From the NCBI RefSeq assembly GCF_030504625.1, contig NZ_JAUKWH010000005.1, positions 38,602 to 70,601 on the forward strand: 32,000 nt of DNA. Reading direction: 5' to 3'. The position numbers and the translations under genes are program-made. This DNA comes from Neisseria sp. MVDL19-042950. Its GTDB lineage: Bacteria; Pseudomonadota; Gammaproteobacteria; Burkholderiales; Neisseriaceae. Under the pieces are notes generated by a model that searched no databases, was not told the origin of the DNA, and worked only from the letters and a program-made list of their open reading frames with translations. Numbering within the stretch: position 1 is the stretch's first letter; each line of letters begins with the position of its first letter. Positions 3,390 through 16,347 of this stretch are shown here, in pieces.

Positions 3390-4982
3390 TTATTGTACGT
3401 GCGCCATTTGCTTTTCTTTTTTAAACTTTCTTGCAGTGTTGGCCAATACAAAAGGCATAGCAATCCAACGAAGGGGGTTACGGATATAAGTCAGTAAATT
3501 TTGCCCAAGCTGATAAGACAAATGTTTATGAATTCTGTTTATATCCGCAGCATCATTGTAAAAGTGTACTGGCGGCAAATTTTGTTCACATGTTTGCTGT
3601 TCTTTATTCACTCGTTTGGCCGTTCGCAATAATTCGAAAGGCATTTTTATACATCCGCTGAAACTTTTACTTTGCTGAATCATTACTGCGCCCAATTGAT
3701 AAGGCAGTTGGGTGCGCACACGATCAGCGGCTCCGTAGTACACGGGGCGTGCTGCCAAACGTTGTTTTTCTAAATATATTTTTTCCAACTCTTCTTGAAC
3801 AAAGTGGAGCTGTTCCAATAAAAGAGTGTTTTCTTTTTCTATAGAGGATTGGGCATTTTTTAGTTGTTGTAAATTTTGCTTATCCGCTTCAGCTTGTTGA
3901 GTAAATAAATTGATTTTTGATGCTAAATCTGATTTTTCTTTTTCCAATTTCAATTTTTCTTGCAGATGTACGTCATGCTTCTGCTTGTACTCATCAGCTA
4001 TTTTTCTGGTTGCTTTTAATTGCTCTTCAACTTGGTTGTAATGCAAGTGAATGGTTTCGCATTCTTTTTTAGTTGATTGTAATTGTTTGGAAAGTAGCGA
4101 AATATTGTCTTTATCGGCCAAACTGTTTGTCATGAGAGAGGCTATCTCTTGATGTTGCAGCATCATTGTTTGCCATGCGCCCATCACTAATTGGCGGTTG
4201 TTTTTCTTACATAAATCAGATTTCAAAGGTAAATTGGAATTATCTTGTAGCTTCTTATATAGCTCTATTACATCGACATTTTCATGAATTAGCGCATCAG
4301 CAAGATAAGCCGCCAAATTTGTTTGGCTGTTGTTTTCTGTATGCACAGAAAGCTCAAAGTTTTTGTCTTTTGAGGGTTTTAAGAGCTGTGGCTGTTTATG
4401 CGATTTATTTTCTTGGGTTACCCACTGCGCTCCTATATGGTGAGAAATTTTCTTCAAATATTTTTTAATAGAAAGCTGAGCCTGTTGGCTATGTACCAGC
4501 AAGCAACGGTTTTTATTATGCAGATAAAAGTTTAATAAACTTTCATTATAGGTAAGCCACTCTTGTAATTTTTGAGCAGTAACGCTTTCTGTCAGCATTT
4601 GAGGCGCACGCGTCAAGACGCTATTCGGTTGGTCGTAAACCAGAATAAAGTGCATGGAACTATCCATATCGCGCCAATAATTTAAAAGGCTGTTCGCTTC
4701 AGGATCTGCCCATCCCCAAAATGGTTGATCAATATTTCCAAGAAATAAATCCATAGCCAGGCCGTACCAAGCCGCTTCAATATGAAGTTGTTGTTCTGTT
4801 TCATAACGGCGAGGTGTATATAAAGAAGGCCGAGCAGACCTTGCCAATAATGAATCGATTTCTAAGGGAGACATTCCATCTCTTTTGGATGGCAATGCAT
4901 GACCCATACCATGGTTGTATAGAAGTTGCTCTACAGCTTGATAGTTAGAATGTTGATGTCCGACGATGAGAATTTTAGCCAT
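3390..4982 (-). CDS. Capsule-region protein of unknown function: N-terminal globular domain, long central coiled coil, duplicated C-terminal motif
   Basis: 530-aa ORF, first gene of the synthesis operon, with AGGGGA upstream of the ATG. Residues ~290-410 are heptad-like and K/E/Q/L-rich (KQKHDVHLQEKLKLEKEKSDLASKINLFTQQAEADKQNLQQLKNAQSSIEKENTLLLEQLHFVQEELEKIYLEKQRL). The C-terminus carries two copies of Y..AAD..R....L.YQLG...(12-14)...MPF.L..TA+. I recognise no family with certainty. Confidence 0.8.
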   Translation of the reverse strand: MAKILIVGHQHSNYQAVEQLLYNHGMGHALPSKRDGMSPLEIDSLLARSARPSLYTPRRYETEQQLHIEAAWYGLAMDLFLGNIDQPFWGWADPEANSLLNYWRDMDSSMHFILVYDQPNSVLTRAPQMLTESVTAQKLQEWLTYNESLLNFYLHNKNRCLLVHSQQAQLSIKKYLKKISHHIGAQWVTQENKSHKQPQLLKPSKDKNFELSVHTENNSQTNLAAYLADALIHENVDVIELYKKLQDNSNLPLKSDLCKKNNRQLVMGAWQTMMLQHQEIASLMTNSLADKDNISLLSKQLQSTKKECETIHLHYNQVEEQLKATRKIADEYKQKHDVHLQEKLKLEKEKSDLASKINLFTQQAEADKQNLQQLKNAQSSIEKENTLLLEQLHFVQEELEKIYLEKQRLAARPVYYGAADRVRTQLPYQLGAVMIQQSKSFSGCIKMPFELLRTAKRVNKEQQTCEQNLPPVHFYNDAADINRIHKHLSYQLGQNLLTYIRNPLRWIAMPFVLANTARKFKKEKQMAHVQ

Positions 4983-11476: not shown

Positions 11477-13070
11477 TTAGCTTTTAGAAGAAGATTCGGG
11501 AAAAGCCTCTTTAAACCATGCTTGGAATTCGGGGGTGTGGCGGATGTTGTCCAAACCGTCGTCTTGTTCAATATGTTCTTTGTTGGGGAAATGATTTGAA
11601 TGTTGTGCAAGACGTAATTGTTTGATTGCTTCGACTGTATTTCCTTCCAAGGCACACAGGCAGGCATGGTTATAGGCAAAGTTTTCTTGATGTTGAGGAT
11701 ATTTATTTAAGAATCCATCAATCAAATTGCGGGCTTGTTGCAATTTGATTTGTGCTTCGGCAGGTTGATTGTCTTTTAAAATATGAAGTTCATGTAGTAA
11801 AGCGCTTAACCAGTTATAAGCGGCCTCATGCATGTCGGGCTTGATAGTCAATGCTTGCCGGTATTTTTCTCCTGCGTCACGCCATTTTTCCAAGGCTGTC
11901 GCGGTATCGCCTTGTGTGGCCAAAACCTGCGCTTCGTCAGCTAAGGCCTTTCCCCAGTTATCGGCGACTTCGTGTATGTCAGGCTCAATAGCCAATGCTT
12001 GTTGGAATTTTACTCCTGCGTCAACGCCATTTTTCCAATGCCATTACGGTATCGCCCTGTATAGCCAAAGCCTGTGCTTCTTCAGCTAAAGCACTTCCCC
12101 AGTTATTGGCTGCTGGATAAAAGTCATTTTTAATTTGTAAAGCCAATTCGTATTTTTCTCCTGCGCTTTGCCATTTATCGAATGCTGCTGAAGTTTGATT
12201 TTGTGTGTATAAATTTCGTGCTTCCATATATAAGGCACGTCCCCAATTATAGGCAGCGATATATTTTCTAGGATTAGAGCGTAATGTTTCTTGGTGGTAT
12301 TGTTCGACTTTGGGGAGCCAATAATTCTGTTGTTTGCGATTACCTTTTTCGTATAAATAACAAGCGTGAAATCCTGCGTTGAAGTTGGCTTGTTCATCTC
12401 TACTATCTTGTAGAAGAACAGCTTGCCAAGCATAAAGAGCGTTTTCATTATCTTGATAATTTTGGCTTCTTTTCGCTTGATCTGAAAGCAAAATAGCTTG
12501 GGCGCGTAGTTGTTCGATAAGGGGAATTTCTTCATTTTTAGACAATTGTTTTGCTTTTTCAATGCTGCTTGTTTGTGCTTCCTGATTTTGTTCTTTGGGG
12601 TTCCATTGCTTCATTTCTGCAATGTCTTGAGTATATTTTTCAGCACTGTCGTAATGTTCTTTGATTTTTTCTACATATTCTTTAGCCTGTTCTAGGTCTT
12701 GTTCTAATTGACGTTTATCTTTTTTATAAAGTAAAAGTGGAATGGCAACGCCTATGGCTGCAATAACAATGCCTGCCACGGCAAAGACTATGGTAATAAA
12801 GGTCATCCACCAGTTGAGGTTTTGTTGCTGGTTATCCATAACCTGCATACGCAATGCTGAAATATTGTCTTGCAGCATTTCAGCTTGTGAGGCAATCAGA
12901 TTGTTTATTTTCGGTTGTTTATCCGTTGTGGTTTCCACTGTTTTTGTTATGGAGGAGTTGCTTGCCCCCGTTTGTTTCGGATCGGCTAATGTATCGGCAG
13001 TCGCGGAAAAGGCAAACGGCAAGCTGAGTATCAAAGCTGAAAGGAAGGATTGAAAAAAGCGGTTGTTCAT
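11477..13070 (-). pseudogene. Signal-peptide / TM / coiled-coil / TPR-like repeat protein, split by a 1-bp insertion (ORFs 12021..13070 and 11477..11995)
   Basis: The upstream ORF ends ...NNWGSALAEEAQALAIQGDTVMALEKWR*. The same 48-aa repeat unit continues in the next frame (DAGVKFQQALAIEPDIHEVADNWGKALADEAQVLATQGDTATALEKWRDAGEKY...). At DNA level, cctgcgtcAAcgccatttttcca at 12014-12036 compares with the paralogous repeat cctgcgtcAcgccatttttcca at 11871-11892. Removing one A at 12023/12024 gives one 530-aa ORF. Confidence 0.7.
11825..12257 (-). repeat. Three consecutive diverged 144-bp (48-aa) coding repeats inside the repeat-protein gene
   Basis: The units are AAYNWGRALYMEARNLYTQNQTSAAFDKWQSAGEKYELALQIKNDFYP, AANNWGSALAEEAQALAIQGDTVMALEKWR(D)AGVKFQQALAIEPDIHE and VADNWGKALADEAQVLATQGDTATALEKWRDAGEKYRQALTIKPDMHE. 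The frameshift lies inside the middle unit. Confidence 0.75.
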
Positions 13071-13326
13071 CGGCGTGTCCTAATCGATAGGGTGTTGATT
13101 ATAAAGAGGTAAACCGCAAATGGATACTTCCCGAATATCCGGAAAAAGGTAGTTGTTCGTAACCTTGAGATGCTACTTTAATATTCAACAGGTATTTTTA
13201 CATAAATTTATAAGTTGCTAATTTGGTTGATTATTTTGTTGTGTCATTTTTGACGGATACAACTGTTTTAAGCGGGTTTTGCTTGACTTTTAAGCATTGC
13301 CCGCTTTGTTATTTTGCGTTAGTTTG

Positions 13327-14290
13327 TCAGGGAGCCTGATAACGTTCCGACTGAAAAGTAGTTTTGTTTTTGTAAAGATTAAAGGCGATAACCGCCAGTT
13401 TTCGCATGATCGCCGTGATAATGACTTTTGACAGTTTCTTCTTTTGCTTAAGACGTTTTGTAAATTCGGGAAAGTATCCGCGAGCATAGGCGACCATAGC
13501 AGGCATGAATAATGCGGCACGCAAACGCCTATTCCCGAAGCGGGTTATCCTACTTTTGCCGTTTACACTGATTCCCGACTGCCTTTGATGCGGACTTAAT
13601 CCGGCAAAGGCGACAAATTGACCGGCGTTTTTAAATGTACCGGATAAGAGATGGTTGGTTAGAATGGCGGCGGTTAACTTGCCAATCGAAGGTATGGTTT
13701 GAAGGCCGTCTGAAACGTCTTTCAGTTCAGGATACTGCATGATTTTTTTCCATTTCAGCTCTCACCAAAGAAAGCTGTTTTTGGATATGGACGATGTTTT
13801 CACGATGAATTTGTTTGACAAATTCATCTTTGGCCGCCGAAAGCCTGTTCTTTTCTGCCGTCTGACTTTCAATAAGCTGTTCCTGTAATGCCAAAACACG
13901 CTTTAAGCGGTAATGGGCTTTTGATACGGGTTTCCTCAAGGGCAAATCTTTCGGCAAAGCAGTACTGCAATATTCGGCAATGAGTTTTGCATCTTGCTTA
14001 TCGGTTTTGGTTCGAGCAAAGCGGCTTTTGGCATAGTCGCTTATTTTCAGAGGATTAATGACGGATATTCTGTAATCTTTGCCCATGTAATCGGCAACAT
14101 CTTCAAAGTAGTTTCCGGTTGCTTCCATACAAATATGGATATCGGAACAATTGAAATTATCCAACCAGCCTTTCAGCTTTTCAAAGCCTTTTATGCCATT
14201 CTCGAATTTCGCTGTTTTAACAACACCGTCTATCAGCAATGCTGCATCAAAGGTTTTATGCGATATATCCAATCCCAAAGCGTTTCTCAT
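13327..14290 (-). pseudogene. IS110-family (Piv/pivNM-irg-like, DEDD) recombinase, interrupted by a +1 frameshift in an A7 tract
   Basis: The N-terminal ORF 13727..14290 reads MRNALGLDISHKTFDAAL...ICMEATGNYFEDVADY...TDKQDAKLIAEYC, the DEDD_Tnp_IS110 type. The C-terminal ORF 13327..13740 reads IPSIGKLTAAILTNHL...FAGLSPHQRQSGISVNGKSRITRFGNRRLRAALFMPA, the Transposase_20 type. The two overlap at GGAAAAAAATCATG (T7 on the + strand at 13743-13749). With A6, a single 320-aa ORF reads ...VRAEMEKIMQYPELKDVSDGLQTIPSIGK. Confidence 0.85.
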
Positions 14291-14713
14291 TATTACCCTT
14301 ACTATTCAGATTCATACTGACGTATGTTCTTTGATGCTACCCAATCTTTATAAACAAGAAATCCCCCGCTTCAATCTCAAGTACAAGCTATATCGCTTTG
14401 GCCGTTGTCGAAGTCGAGGGATACGGTTTGAATTACGTCTAATCCAAACCTTTAAGCCGTCTGTTTCCAAACGGCTTAAAACTTTGAATTAGCATTTTAT
14501 TGCTTTGAATTGTTGATTTTGCTTAAAAATTAAGCGATTTTTGGGGTTTTAGCGAGCTCGCGGGAGAACGCCGGAAGCAACAAAATTGCCGAAAAGCAAA
14601 CTGGCGGGAGGTCCCGCACCCCGAGACCATTTTTTTATTGCCGCCCCCTCTAAAAACATGCCGTGCTATCCGAACATACGCGAGGAGGGTTCGACAATAA
14701 AAAAATGGCCAAA

Positions 14714-14881
14714 TCAAAGATTAACAAAATACCAAATAACAACAGACAAAATAAAACCAATGCAAATACCAAGCAAAGGATAACCAAACCACTCTTTTAA
14801 AATATATTTAGTACCTTTTTTCCTATGAACATGAATAATTGCATAAAGAATAAGACCTGCAATAACAATCTCTAAAACCAT
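14714..14881 (-). CDS. Small two-TM hypothetical protein immediately after zot (below ORF-track size cutoff)
   Basis: My own translation gives MVLEIVIAGLILYAIIHVHRKKGTKYILKEWFGYPLLGICIGFILSVVIWYFVNL (55 aa). The ATG lies 8 nt after the zot stop. It has two hydrophobic helices separated by a basic loop. No family recognised. Confidence 0.4.
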   Translation of the reverse strand: MVLEIVIAGLILYAIIHVHRKKGTKYILKEWFGYPLLGICIGFILSVVIWYFVNL

Positions 14882-14888
14882 TCGGCAC

Positions 14889-16046
14889 CTACTGCATATT
14901 CACACGGGCTTCATTGTAGCCGTCATACATTAAATTAGACTTCGACGCACCACCCATCACTAATACTTGCTGCGACTCCACCGCTGGCGATACTACCGTT
15001 TGGGCAGGTGTTTCTACCGTTTGTCTATCCTTATAGGGATTATAAATACCGTTTTCGGCGTAATCAATACACTGGGATTTTTTTATGCCTTTTATCGGTG
15101 TGGCTTGGTCTGTATAACATGTGCATTTACCTTCGGTTTTGACACAGGCAACCGGAAACGGCATGGTCTTAATGCTTTTATTGTGGACGTTGTATATCGG
15201 CGCAGTCCACGGCTGGCCGTCTATAACCGGCTTGTAATCATCTTCGGCCAAATGGGGCTTACTCTCTGGCTTAGACTGAACAGGCACCGGCGGGTATTGC
15301 CCCGCTTGGCTTGCGTCATTTGTGGTAGGAGCCGCCACCAACGCACCCCCGGCGGGGCTTGCCGCTGGAGCGGCAACTTGAGCTTGTGAAGTGGATTCCT
15401 GTTTATCTACATAGCTGTTCCAACTACTGTATACATACCAAGCTGAAACTATAATAGTAAGCAATACAACGGGAACAATATAAACAACGCGGCTTAACTT
15501 GGTATTGATTTTGGTGTGTTCTTCAGCCGACCTATACACGCCGAATGCCTTTTTATCCAAGGTATACACGCTTTTTACGGCACTTTGAACACTGGTCTTA
15601 CTTGTCGGATCACCGCAGCTTTCCCATTCCAACATTCGTCTTACACCGAGATTGGTTTTGCTGATATGGCAGTGATGACCTATCAGGCTTCGGACATTAA
15701 TATCTATCAGTCTTGGATGTTGGGTTAACAAAAATATATCTATACCTTTGTGTCGGTGCGTTTCAAGCTCGGCAACGAAATCGGGCACTTTCGAACCGCT
15801 TGGCCGCGGTCTGAATACGCGCTGGCACTCATCTATAACAAGGATAGCCCCCGTAGGCGCCCATTTATGCCACGTCTGCATGGTTTCGCCTTCGGGCATG
15901 GGCAGGTTGGGAATAATATCGCCTCTTACTTCCGGTATTCCGTCTAAGTAAAGAGGGCGGTTTTTCAAATCTTTCCGATTCATCAAATCGGAAATCATTT
16001 TTAAGGTTTTTCCGCTACCCGGAACACCGGTAATCAAATAGAGCAT
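14889..16046 (-). CDS. Zot-like filamentous phage assembly ATPase (pI family)
   Basis: 385 aa starting MLYLITGVPGSGKTLKMI (Walker A), with VIDECQ (Walker B-like). It has a central TM (VVYIVPVVLLTIIVSAWYVYSSW) and a Pro/Ala-rich periplasmic tail, the typical Zot/pI architecture. Confidence 0.9.
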   Translation of the reverse strand: MLYLITGVPGSGKTLKMISDLMNRKDLKNRPLYLDGIPEVRGDIIPNLPMPEGETMQTWHKWAPTGAILVIDECQRVFRPRPSGSKVPDFVAELETHRHKGIDIFLLTQHPRLIDINVRSLIGHHCHISKTNLGVRRMLEWESCGDPTSKTSVQSAVKSVYTLDKKAFGVYRSAEEHTKINTKLSRVVYIVPVVLLTIIVSAWYVYSSWNSYVDKQESTSQAQVAAPAASPAGGALVAAPTTNDASQAGQYPPVPVQSKPESKPHLAEDDYKPVIDGQPWTAPIYNVHNKSIKTMPFPVACVKTEGKCTCYTDQATPIKGIKKSQCIDYAENGIYNPYKDRQTVETPAQTVVSPAVESQQVLVMGGASKSNLMYDGYNEARVNMQ

Positions 16047-16067
16047 TTGTGTTTTCCTTTTCCGTTA

Positions 16068-16346
16068 TTATTTGCGCTGAATACTGGCCGATAGCTTGGA
16101 CATGGCTTTAAGGGATGCGACAAAAGCAAAGGTGCCGAATATCCAATTGAGCACTACGCCAATTCCTACTATATAGGCTAAATTCAATGCATCGCTTGGG
16201 ATTCCGCCTATCTGTTCCTGCACTTTCGAAATGAAATAGCCTTGCAATTCATTAAGGCCGACATACGACACGAAAGACAACCCCAATGCGGCAATCACAC
16301 GACCGGCGACATTCATCAATACGCCTGTTATCAATGAACCCCACAT
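16068..16346 (-). CDS. Small integral membrane protein, pVI-like minor coat (DUF2523-like position)
   Basis: 92 aa with three hydrophobic segments. It lies between the pIII-like gene and zot, as in other inoviruses. Confidence 0.6.
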   Translation of the reverse strand: MWGSLITGVLMNVAGRVIAALGLSFVSYVGLNELQGYFISKVQEQIGGIPSDALNLAYIVGIGVVLNWIFGTFAFVASLKAMSKLSASIQRK

Positions 16347-16347
16347 A

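Follow-up and report, generated by a model that had tools for sequence, protein, structure and literature searches.

The 32,000 nucleotides of Neisseria sp. MVDL19-042950 that were analysed here (the window) contain an 8.1-kb Nf-like filamentous prophage with a gene for an IS110-family recombinase at one end. The 423-bp gap in front of this gene, which is our subject, consists of two functional modules, one at 14500-14713 and one at about 14291-14450, the latter perhaps beginning at about 14485. Because of its location, its two loops, its guide matches, the CT core and the covariation across relatives, we put the probability that the minus strand of 14291-14450 (or up to 14481) encodes an IS621-type bridge RNA at roughly 85%, judging from sequence comparison. 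A sequence-only reading had offered a bridge RNA or an origin and packaging region as alternatives for the entire gap. The first of these describes the proximal half, as guides and covariation show; the distal half fits packaging and termination, by inference. The locus is read in the following order:

19437-20990, minus strand: Rep_trans (Pfam)
minus strand, next in order: coat-like open reading frame (ORF) of an Nf-like inovirus module
16348-18306, minus strand: TspB-like protein
16068-16346, minus strand: DUF2523
14889-16046, minus strand: Zot
14714-14881, minus strand: 55-aa ORF, the small post-zot ORF
14291-14713, minus strand: the 423-bp gap under study
13327-14290, minus strand: IS110-family DEDD recombinase, split into ORFs of 187 aa and 137 aa by an A7 run at 13742-13748
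13727-14290, minus strand: first of these ORFs, DEDD_Tnp_IS110 (Pfam)
13327-13740, minus strand: second of these ORFs, Transposase_20 (Pfam)

The inovirus module, the IS110-type recombinase at one end and the CT-flanked insertion at a repeat identify the element as a filamentous prophage of the Nf/MDA type (Inoviridae), which is present as one copy in its own genome. The host is a commensal-type Neisseria; the window has a G+C content of 48% and 32 copies of the DNA uptake sequence (DUS) GCCGTCTGAA, almost all of which are AG-DUS (AGGCCGTCTGAA).

The earlier view that the gap holds no credible ORF stands in a qualified form. The gap is overlapped by TTG-start mechanical ORFs of 40-65 aa; these have no Pfam or PHROG match, and the DNA beneath them is not kept in sequence among relatives. 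Conservation at the DNA level across the genus is confined to the approximately 200 nt adjoining the recombinase start, with 72-82% identity. The minus-strand RNA of the gap folds at -147 kcal/mol compared to -108 +/- 5 in shuffled sequences (z = -7.56, equalled by 0 of 100 shuffles). The palindromes and stems reported earlier were all recovered in place (14451-14480, GCGAGCTCGC at 14552-14561, and 14604-14617), and none of them holds a guide segment. Overlooked at that stage were the frameshift in the recombinase and the largest structure of the gap, an 86-nt hairpin at 14625-14710, the top of which had been recorded as a G/C-rich patch at 14640-14690.

Fold and conservation of the proximal module

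Recombinase relatives were collected and their upstream regions aligned. The architecture common to them is a 5' stem-loop (H1), a stem of 12-13 bp (P1) enclosing a loop with a hairpin (P2), a spacer, a loop with a further hairpin (P4), the Shine-Dalgarno sequence and the ATG. In the window, the RNA core at 14291-14450 lies upstream of the recombinase ATG (14288-14290) on the same strand. Its parts are given below from 5' to 3', including the left and right target guides (LTG, RTG) and the left and right donor guides (LDG, RDG):

14494-14499, minus strand: TAAAAT in the conserved block GCAATAAAATGC, a weak candidate for the -10 box of the bridge RNA
14450-14481, minus strand: hairpin H0, 14 pairs in full, containing the previously noted 10-bp stem TTTAAGCCGT-N10-ACGGCTTAAA (14451-14480)
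14425-14450, minus strand: H1, 5' stem-loop with the conserved loop GGAUUAG; 9 of 9 pairs with compensatory changes, 85-89% of cells paired
14410-14422, minus strand: 5' strand of P1, AUCCCUCG-A-CUUC, closing the target-binding loop; 13 of 13 pairs with compensatory changes, 96-99% of cells paired
14400-14407, minus strand: LTG CAACGGCC, in which ACGGC-C covers the final 5 nt of the left target and the first base of the core
14385-14398, minus strand: P2, distal hairpin in the target loop, AAGC-GAUAUA-GCUU; shared by all relatives, with compensatory changes, and recovered in the minimum-energy fold
14376-14381, minus strand: RTG CUUGAG, the reverse complement of CT-CAAG
14361-14372, minus strand: 3' strand of P1, GAAG-CGGGGGAU, with covariation
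14333-14341, minus strand: LDG GGUAGCAUC, corresponding to GTAGCAT-C at the right end
14308-14330, minus strand: P4, distal hairpin in the donor loop, AGA-A-CAUAC-GUCA-GUAUG-AA-UCU; covariation and minimum-energy fold
14298-14306, minus strand: RDG AAUA(G)UAAG, the complement of CT-TATAT (core and first left-end bases) with the G bulged

The minimum-energy fold of the window RNA by itself yields H0, H1, P1, P2 and P4, and the two-loop fold with its distal hairpins is conserved with covariation in H1, P1, P2 and P4. In an alignment of 12 sequences, 87.4% of the cells were paired, 28 of 34 pairs had changed on both sides and the covariation score was 0.545; shuffled controls scored 0.20 (0 of 500 reached 0.545) and structures slid by 1-3 columns at most 0.19. 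With 33 distinct sequences, the values rose to 90.8% paired cells, 32 of 33 pairs changed on both sides and a score of 0.703 versus 0.209 after shuffling; this larger alignment was fitted to the covariance model and hence leans towards the structure, whereas the alignment of 12 sequences was not so fitted. MAFFT and RNAalifold alone missed both distal hairpins owing to indels, and these hairpins were added by hand and tested by pair counts. A stem closing the donor loop, formed by UUCUUGUU and AAUGAGAA across the start codon, pairs in the window and is unconvincing in relatives; we do not claim it. Of 98 genomes of the genus, 31 contained full-length matches to the covariance model, 55 copies in total and at most 6 in any one genome.

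Upstream of H1, the stem arm at 14451-14480 had been described as a degenerate DUS, and the arm GCCGTCTGTT indeed agrees with GCCGTCTGAA at 8 of 10 positions. The 3' arm of H0 reads CAGACGGCUU where the target has CAGACGGCCU, with TT in place of the CT core. Many relatives, albeit not all, have an equivalent DUS-like hairpin, and a terminator scan flags H0. H0 may belong to the RNA as a 5' hairpin, act as an insulating terminator or be the relic of an older insertion. Approximately half of the relatives carry a -10-like hexamer at -48/-50 (with H0) or -11/-12 (without H0) from H1. In the window, the candidate TAAAAT box is at the first of these positions; it lacks a recognisable -35 box and was not called by the consensus scan.

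Prophage ends, guides and insertion sites

The ends of the prophage were located in two ways. Alignment of four related prophages at different sites showed that the homology begins with TATATATTGCG directly after a CT and ends with AAAGTAGCAT directly before a CT. In addition, a right-flank search across the genus located an intact empty site in the sister genome G002, in which TTTCAGACGGCCT continues without interruption into CAAGGTTACG (context GCCGCTTTTCAGACGGCCT followed by CAAGGTTACG). There, the left 1,500 nt correspond to window positions 22780-21275 and the next 2,369 nt to 13169-10800, with 94-96% identity. The two matches share exactly the dinucleotide CT and therefore define the insert as 13170-21274 with a duplicated CT core. 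This insert of 8,105 bp on the minus strand is flanked by CT at 21275-21276 and at 13168-13169, i.e. at both junctions, where the empty site has a single CT; an earlier placement of the ends at 13250-21270 is hereby corrected. A search for the empty site near rpmE in 20 species genomes met flanks that were not syntenic, and exact-pattern scans of genome contigs and metagenome contigs for the joined flanks gave no match. The junctions comprise:

21266-21287, minus strand: left junction, with the reverse complement of the AG-DUS, TTTCAGACGGC, at 21277-21287, the core CT at 21275-21276 and the left end of the phage, TATATATTG, at 21266-21274, which contains a -10-like TATATT (21267-21272)
13168-13189, minus strand: right end of the prophage, with a -35-like TTGAAT at 13183-13188, the left donor GTAGCAT and the core CT at 13168-13169
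13158-13167, minus strand: right target CAAGGTTACG, chromosomal, contiguous with the left target in G002

All four guides of the window RNA can be read against these sites. In the target loop, ACGGCC of the LTG corresponds to TTTCAGACGGC-C at the junction of the prophage itself and at the empty site, and the RTG is antisense to CT-CAAG, the core and right flank at 13164-13169, which is likewise present at the empty site. Together, the two guides spell the G002 sequence ACGGC-CT-CAAG, as expected from the earlier suggestion that a bridge RNA would specify the attachment site. In the donor loop, the word GTAGCATC of the LDG occurs once, at the right end (13169-13176), followed by T. The LDG segment GUAGCAUC equals the right end, and the RDG complements the left end. 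The complementarity between loops and both the joined phage ends and the empty site, which had been proposed as a check, was thus clearly found. In IS621, the 5' sides of the loops carry the left half-sites in top-strand sense and the 3' sides are antisense to the right half-sites (PMC11208160); the window RNA follows this strand rule in both loops.

The guides change together with the DNA that they face. Among the first 12 elements, the RTG matched its own flank over 4-6 nt beyond the CT (mean 5.2, compared to 1.26 for non-cognate flanks), and in a permutation with 9 distinct lineages the cognate total was reached in 0 of 100,000 trials. Of 36 loci with a model hit, 28 had a single occurrence of a 7-9-mer of the LDG at 1026-1143 nt downstream of the RNA. 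In 25 of these 28, the next 5-7 nt (core T counted) were the reverse complement of the element's own RTG. Right target guides were diverse (CUUGAG, GAAAAG, GCAAAG, GACGAG, CGUGAG, CACAAAG and CAGGAAAG), and the LDG covaried with the right end (GTAGCATC, GTAGTATC, ATATCATC, ATACCATC, ACACTATC, CTTGGTATC and GATATTATC). From complete genomes, 18 left junctions could be tabulated for the 20 elements examined. In 14 of these 18, the LTG agreed with 5-8 nt of the element's left flank up to and including the first core base. ACGGCC guides occur at TTCAGACGGC followed by CT (AG-DUS), ACGACC guides at TTCAGACGAC followed by CT (mucDUS dialect) with the exception of L145, and an AGAGACC guide at a site that is no DUS.

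This covariation bears on the idea that the proximal 190 nt merely form the 5' untranslated region or translational leader of the recombinase and that the matches are relics at the DNA level, such as pseudo-ends or captured targets, of past recombination. The segment does continue into the Shine-Dalgarno sequence and the start codon. Moreover, a copy of the recombinase gene on a contig of N. gonorrhoeae DSM 9188 is separable from the RNA, its homology to the locus beginning approximately 20 nt upstream of the ATG. Relics, however, would not hold the IS621 strand rule in every element along with covarying hairpins and stem, nor would they be repeatedly retargeted to new flanks with the fold retained. 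We regard a mere leader as very improbable.

A functional guide RNA downstream of the recombinase, at 13170-13326, is extremely improbable in our view. Such a seekRNA layout would correspond to the IS1111 group, whose RNA is encoded in the right end, and 157 nt of non-coding DNA do follow the stop codon here. But all four guide segments lie upstream of the recombinase, the covariance model matches upstream only, and the right end can be read as a terminator-like hairpin, a -35 box and a donor half-site only. Also, no long sub-terminal inverted repeats joining the ends TATATATTGCG and AAAGTAGCAT were seen.

Several observations weigh against a bridge RNA in this segment. Four of the 18 left junctions fit their LTG poorly (L143, L145, L147 and L153); two of them differ just by the G/A that separates the dialects. 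Within the subgroup of elements with LDG ACACUAUA-C (L127, L130, L131 and L133 from G034, G069, G049 and G052), the last three had no right-end match within 1.5 kb, and L127 had a 7-nt right-end match only, with a flank that mismatches its own RTG; these elements may use a different core or be rearranged. The covariance-model hit that had been suggested as a test was not obtained from Rfam 15, in which no family reached the gathering score or E <= 10 for the gap beyond chance-level miRNA and CRISPR-repeat matches; it is uncertain whether Rfam 15 has a bridge RNA model. A sigma-70 promoter scan called none upstream of the RNA. The RDG has complementarity as its sole evidence: it overlaps the Shine-Dalgarno sequence of the recombinase, its left-end DNA partner is invariant among relatives, and its conservation could alternatively stem from the ribosome-binding site. 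The target pairing, with 6 nt for the LTG and 6 nt for the RTG including the core, is short in comparison to the 8-9 and 4-7 nt of IS621. The recombinase of this copy is frameshifted at the A7 run. For the distal module, the packaging and terminator roles suggested below derive from position, hairpin conservation and the layout of Ff phages.

Further support for guides that read the ends comes from a free phage. Dulem virus 50 (PP511607.1), a circular inovirus genome of 8,458 nt from lemur saliva and the sole match in the phage database, has the same gene order as the prophage and a bridge RNA at 2088-2252 that scores 137 bits with the covariance model. Its ends are joined via one CT (CTTGAAGCGTATAGTAGTAT-CT-TATATATTACG; in shorter form AGTAGTAT-CT-TATATATT), in exact agreement with its own LDG (AGUAGUAUC) and RDG. 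Its guides predict a target of DUS plus T-run, which suggests, on the basis of sequence, a Neisseriaceae host in the lemur mouth.

A related RNA was found in a genome rich in palindromic dRS3 (209 copies), with LTG AAUCCCGC and RTG GACGCGUAG, and the element is followed by CT-GCGCGGAAAG, the right half of dRS3. Both guides are similar to the Nf1 target in the literature, ATTCCCRC-CT-RCGCGGRAAK, but deviate from it at the core and in the first base of the right target. As a target in the window itself, dRS3 was considered and dismissed: the window contains none.

When the right and left ends of the window prophage are joined via one CT, they form TTGAAT-17 nt-TATATT, and the joint of Dulem virus 50 yields TTGAAG-17 nt-TATATT. 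Most relatives with a located end have a -35-like box (TTGACA, TTGTCA or TTGAAT) 15 nt before the right end. A joint promoter, as has been described for IS110 elements, would be present in the circular form alone; here it would point into the replication genes and not towards the RNA.

Reverse-complemented, the AG-DUS gives the left target half TTCAGACGGCCT, and the host genome has 2,899 copies of this DUS. The 11 nt set by LTG, core and RTG, ACGGCCTCAAG, occur at 46 further sites, all within a DUS, where approximately 1 would be expected by chance. As the left target half is the end of a reverse-complemented AG-DUS, the RNA would appear to use the commonest repeat of the genome as a landing pad, with the RTG narrowing approximately 2,900 DUS to 46 further sites.

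Other observations concern the surroundings of the ends. Adjoining the right junction, the host gene region 11477-13070 has two ORFs of 172 and 349 aa with no Pfam match. It is 96% identical in G002, where it follows directly after the rpmE terminator and a DUS, and we therefore assign it to host DNA and not to phage cargo. At 1490-1760 of locus L085 (G024:C35), a 240-bp segment has two left-end starts with CTTATATATTGCG and one with TTTATATATTGCG. The first of the three follows a mucDUS, and they represent nested or tandem partial phage copies. Locus L083 (G030:C1:864000-878000) has two head-to-head prophages at 4560-4760, the left end of one abutting an apparently truncated Rep gene in its neighbour, which looks like the integration of one phage into another; their right ends are identical through CT-TTTG and divergent beyond.

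The distal module and the recombinase

Two hairpins dominate the distal half of the gap (14500-14713):

14625-14710, minus strand: near-perfect hairpin of 86 nt beginning 4 nt past the 55-aa post-zot ORF, recovered in the folds
14604-14617, minus strand: GC hairpin GCGGGACCUCCCGC (GCGGGA-CC-TCCCGC), flagged by a terminator scan

Every relative examined as well as Dulem virus 50 has a long hairpin with a stem of 19-30 bp and unrelated sequence at the position of the first. It is probably a packaging signal, or else a minus-strand origin. The sequence GCGGGAnnUCCCGC after this hairpin is conserved. In relatives, the GC hairpin leads into a clean T-run (GCGGGAACTCCCGC(C)TTTTTGA), which is degenerate in the window; this hairpin is probably the intrinsic terminator of the structural and assembly operon.

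Filamentous phages of the Ff group (f1/M13) keep their origin and packaging hairpins in a large intergenic region, with a long imperfect hairpin directly past the morphogenesis genes and beside a terminator. The entire gap might accordingly be the main intergenic region of the phage with both origins and the packaging signal, its hairpins acting on DNA and having no guide function. The gap folds as plus-strand DNA, too (z = -3.3), and the position of the long hairpin is kept in all relatives. This explanation fits 14500-14713 only, however, and accounts neither for the change of 14400-14407 and 14376-14381 in step with the chromosomal flanks nor for the copy of the right end at 14333-14341. 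The hairpin-rich region 21190-21274 beside the Rep gene is, besides, another possible place for the plus-strand origin. That the whole gap serves in this way is very improbable.

The recombinase itself belongs with proteins that use bridge RNAs. Among solved structures, IS621 and ISCro4 were the only meaningful matches of the two recombinase halves (E 1e-21 to 1e-24). An intact relative reached E 1e-51 over its full length, and ISCro4 (PDB 9T56) was the top match (E 3.7e-52, residues 5-319 of the intact relative L005).

In the window, the gene is split at GGAAAAAAATCATG, and with A6 in place of A7 a single frame of 320 aa results. The split could be due to slippage, decay or an assembly error. 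Given the frameshift, this prophage can probably no longer leave its site, barring a reversion of the A-tract by slippage. The bridge RNA gene could be genuine and yet lie in a copy that is now a dead relic; this would be compatible with the bridge RNA reading, and we consider it possible at somewhat less than even odds. It would agree with the split gene, the single copy in the genome and the truncation to 231 aa of the recombinase copy in G094 (L006). On the other hand, there is no damage to guides, stems or ends, which continue to fit the insertion site, and a homopolymer could revert by slippage or be an assembly error.

Within the recombinase gene at 13703-13714, on the minus strand, lies the sole exact AG-DUS of the prophage. 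Its sequence on the phage strand, TTCAGACGGC-CT-TCAA, has the left target and the core but mismatches the RTG (CAAG) on the right side, making it a near self-target. A 15.7-bit match to the Rfam family neisseria_FSE at 13705-13733 (gathering score 50) overlaps this DUS, to which it is probably due. In the N. gonorrhoeae DSM 9188 copy mentioned above (L022), the homology begins at ATATAAGGGTAATCCCATG and is preceded by a glycosyltransferase-like coding sequence; this copy is severed from the RNA exactly at the RDG, whose DNA has CTTAT on the other strand.

Known systems and the biology of Nf-type phages

The fold and pairing logic described here are those of an ordinary IS621-type bridge RNA (Durrant et al. 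2024, PMC11208160; structures 8WT6-8WT9). Shared with IS621 are the position of the RNA directly in front of a DEDD/Tnp recombinase gene with the same orientation, the order of 5' stem-loop, target loop and donor loop, left-sense 5' loop sides that include the core and right-antisense 3' sides, the core CT, a discontiguous RDG pairing (the bulge in the window RDG recalls IS621), a promoter created across the joint of right and left end, and a protein match of E ~1e-51 for the intact relative. Unlike IS621, the mobile unit is a filamentous phage of 8.1 kb and not an insertion sequence of approximately 1.3 kb, its target is the host DUS, and the left guides have an A at the position of the second core base T. 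Also in contrast to IS621, the RNA gene is not located at the recognised left end (21274) but is separated from it by approximately 6.8 kb of phage genes. As the promoter at the joint is directed towards the replication genes, transcription of the RNA must rely on a different promoter or on read-through. The same differences apply to ISCro4, the best solved-structure match, for which proteins alone were compared. What is new lies in the setting: phage-sized cargo, an RNA gene approximately 6.8 kb from the recognised end, and the DUS as landing pad. The IS1111 elements with their seekRNA or bridge RNA share the recombinase superfamily and the logic of one RNA for two sites, but differ in that their RNA is downstream, with a long right end and sub-terminal inverted repeats of 7-17 bp; here it is upstream and no such repeats were seen.

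The distal module resembles that of Ff phages in the layout of a hairpin after the morphogenesis genes near a terminator. It shows no sequence similarity to them, and the replication origin is probably elsewhere.

The Nf1-Nf4/MDA-phi prophages of Neisseria (Kawai 2005 and Bille 2005 as cited in PMC7058167; PMC2212043) have in common with the window prophage the order of Rep, coat, TspB-like protein, DUF2523, Zot and an IS110-type transposase at one end as well as integration at a CT-containing repeat. The related RNA of the dRS3-rich genome, with guides that resemble dRS3 apart from mismatches and a right flank that is half a dRS3, provides a further likeness. In contrast to the Nf/MDA prophages, the host here is an AG-DUS commensal Neisseria and the target is the end of a DUS instead of dRS3. 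Integration of Nf phages at dRS3 by an IS110-type transposase has been reported (PMC7058167, PMC2212043, PMC11437467). In the Nf/MDA papers searched, the choice of site is credited to the transposase and a guide RNA goes unmentioned, and our literature search returned no paper linking bridge RNAs to phages of the Nf/MDA type.

By analogy with IS621, the recombinase would bind the bridge RNA and the circular replicative form would be inserted by strand exchange at the CT core. A promoter facing the replication genes would exist in the circle, with its -35 box from the right end and its -10 box from the left end, and integration would break it. This phage family thus most likely selects its integration sites by RNA pairing, as far as can be told from sequence. 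We further deem it probable, with less assurance than for the RNA itself, that the Nf-type phages of the Neisseriaceae including the lineage of the dRS3-rich genome are RNA-guided integrators, in which the bridge RNA is uncoupled from the end of the element, the host DUS or dRS3 serves as a genome-wide landing pad, the left guide tracks the DUS dialect and the right guide is freely retargeted to a subset of sites.

If true, this would account for the 20-year-old observation of repeat-targeted Nf integration and provide a concrete, testable mechanism for the site choice of Nf/MDA-type phages, which since 2005 has been credited to 'their own transposase' with its specificity unexplained. A bridge recombinase acting as phage integrase, with a cargo of 8 kb and an RNA gene far from the donor site, would extend the scope of these systems beyond small insertion sequences. 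Attachment sites (attB) and prophage ends would become predictable from the guides, from sequence alone. Moreover, phage integration would be tied to the DUS, the signature repeat of Neisseriaceae competence, which suggests that the DUS dialect may limit the hosts that a phage lineage can lysogenise.

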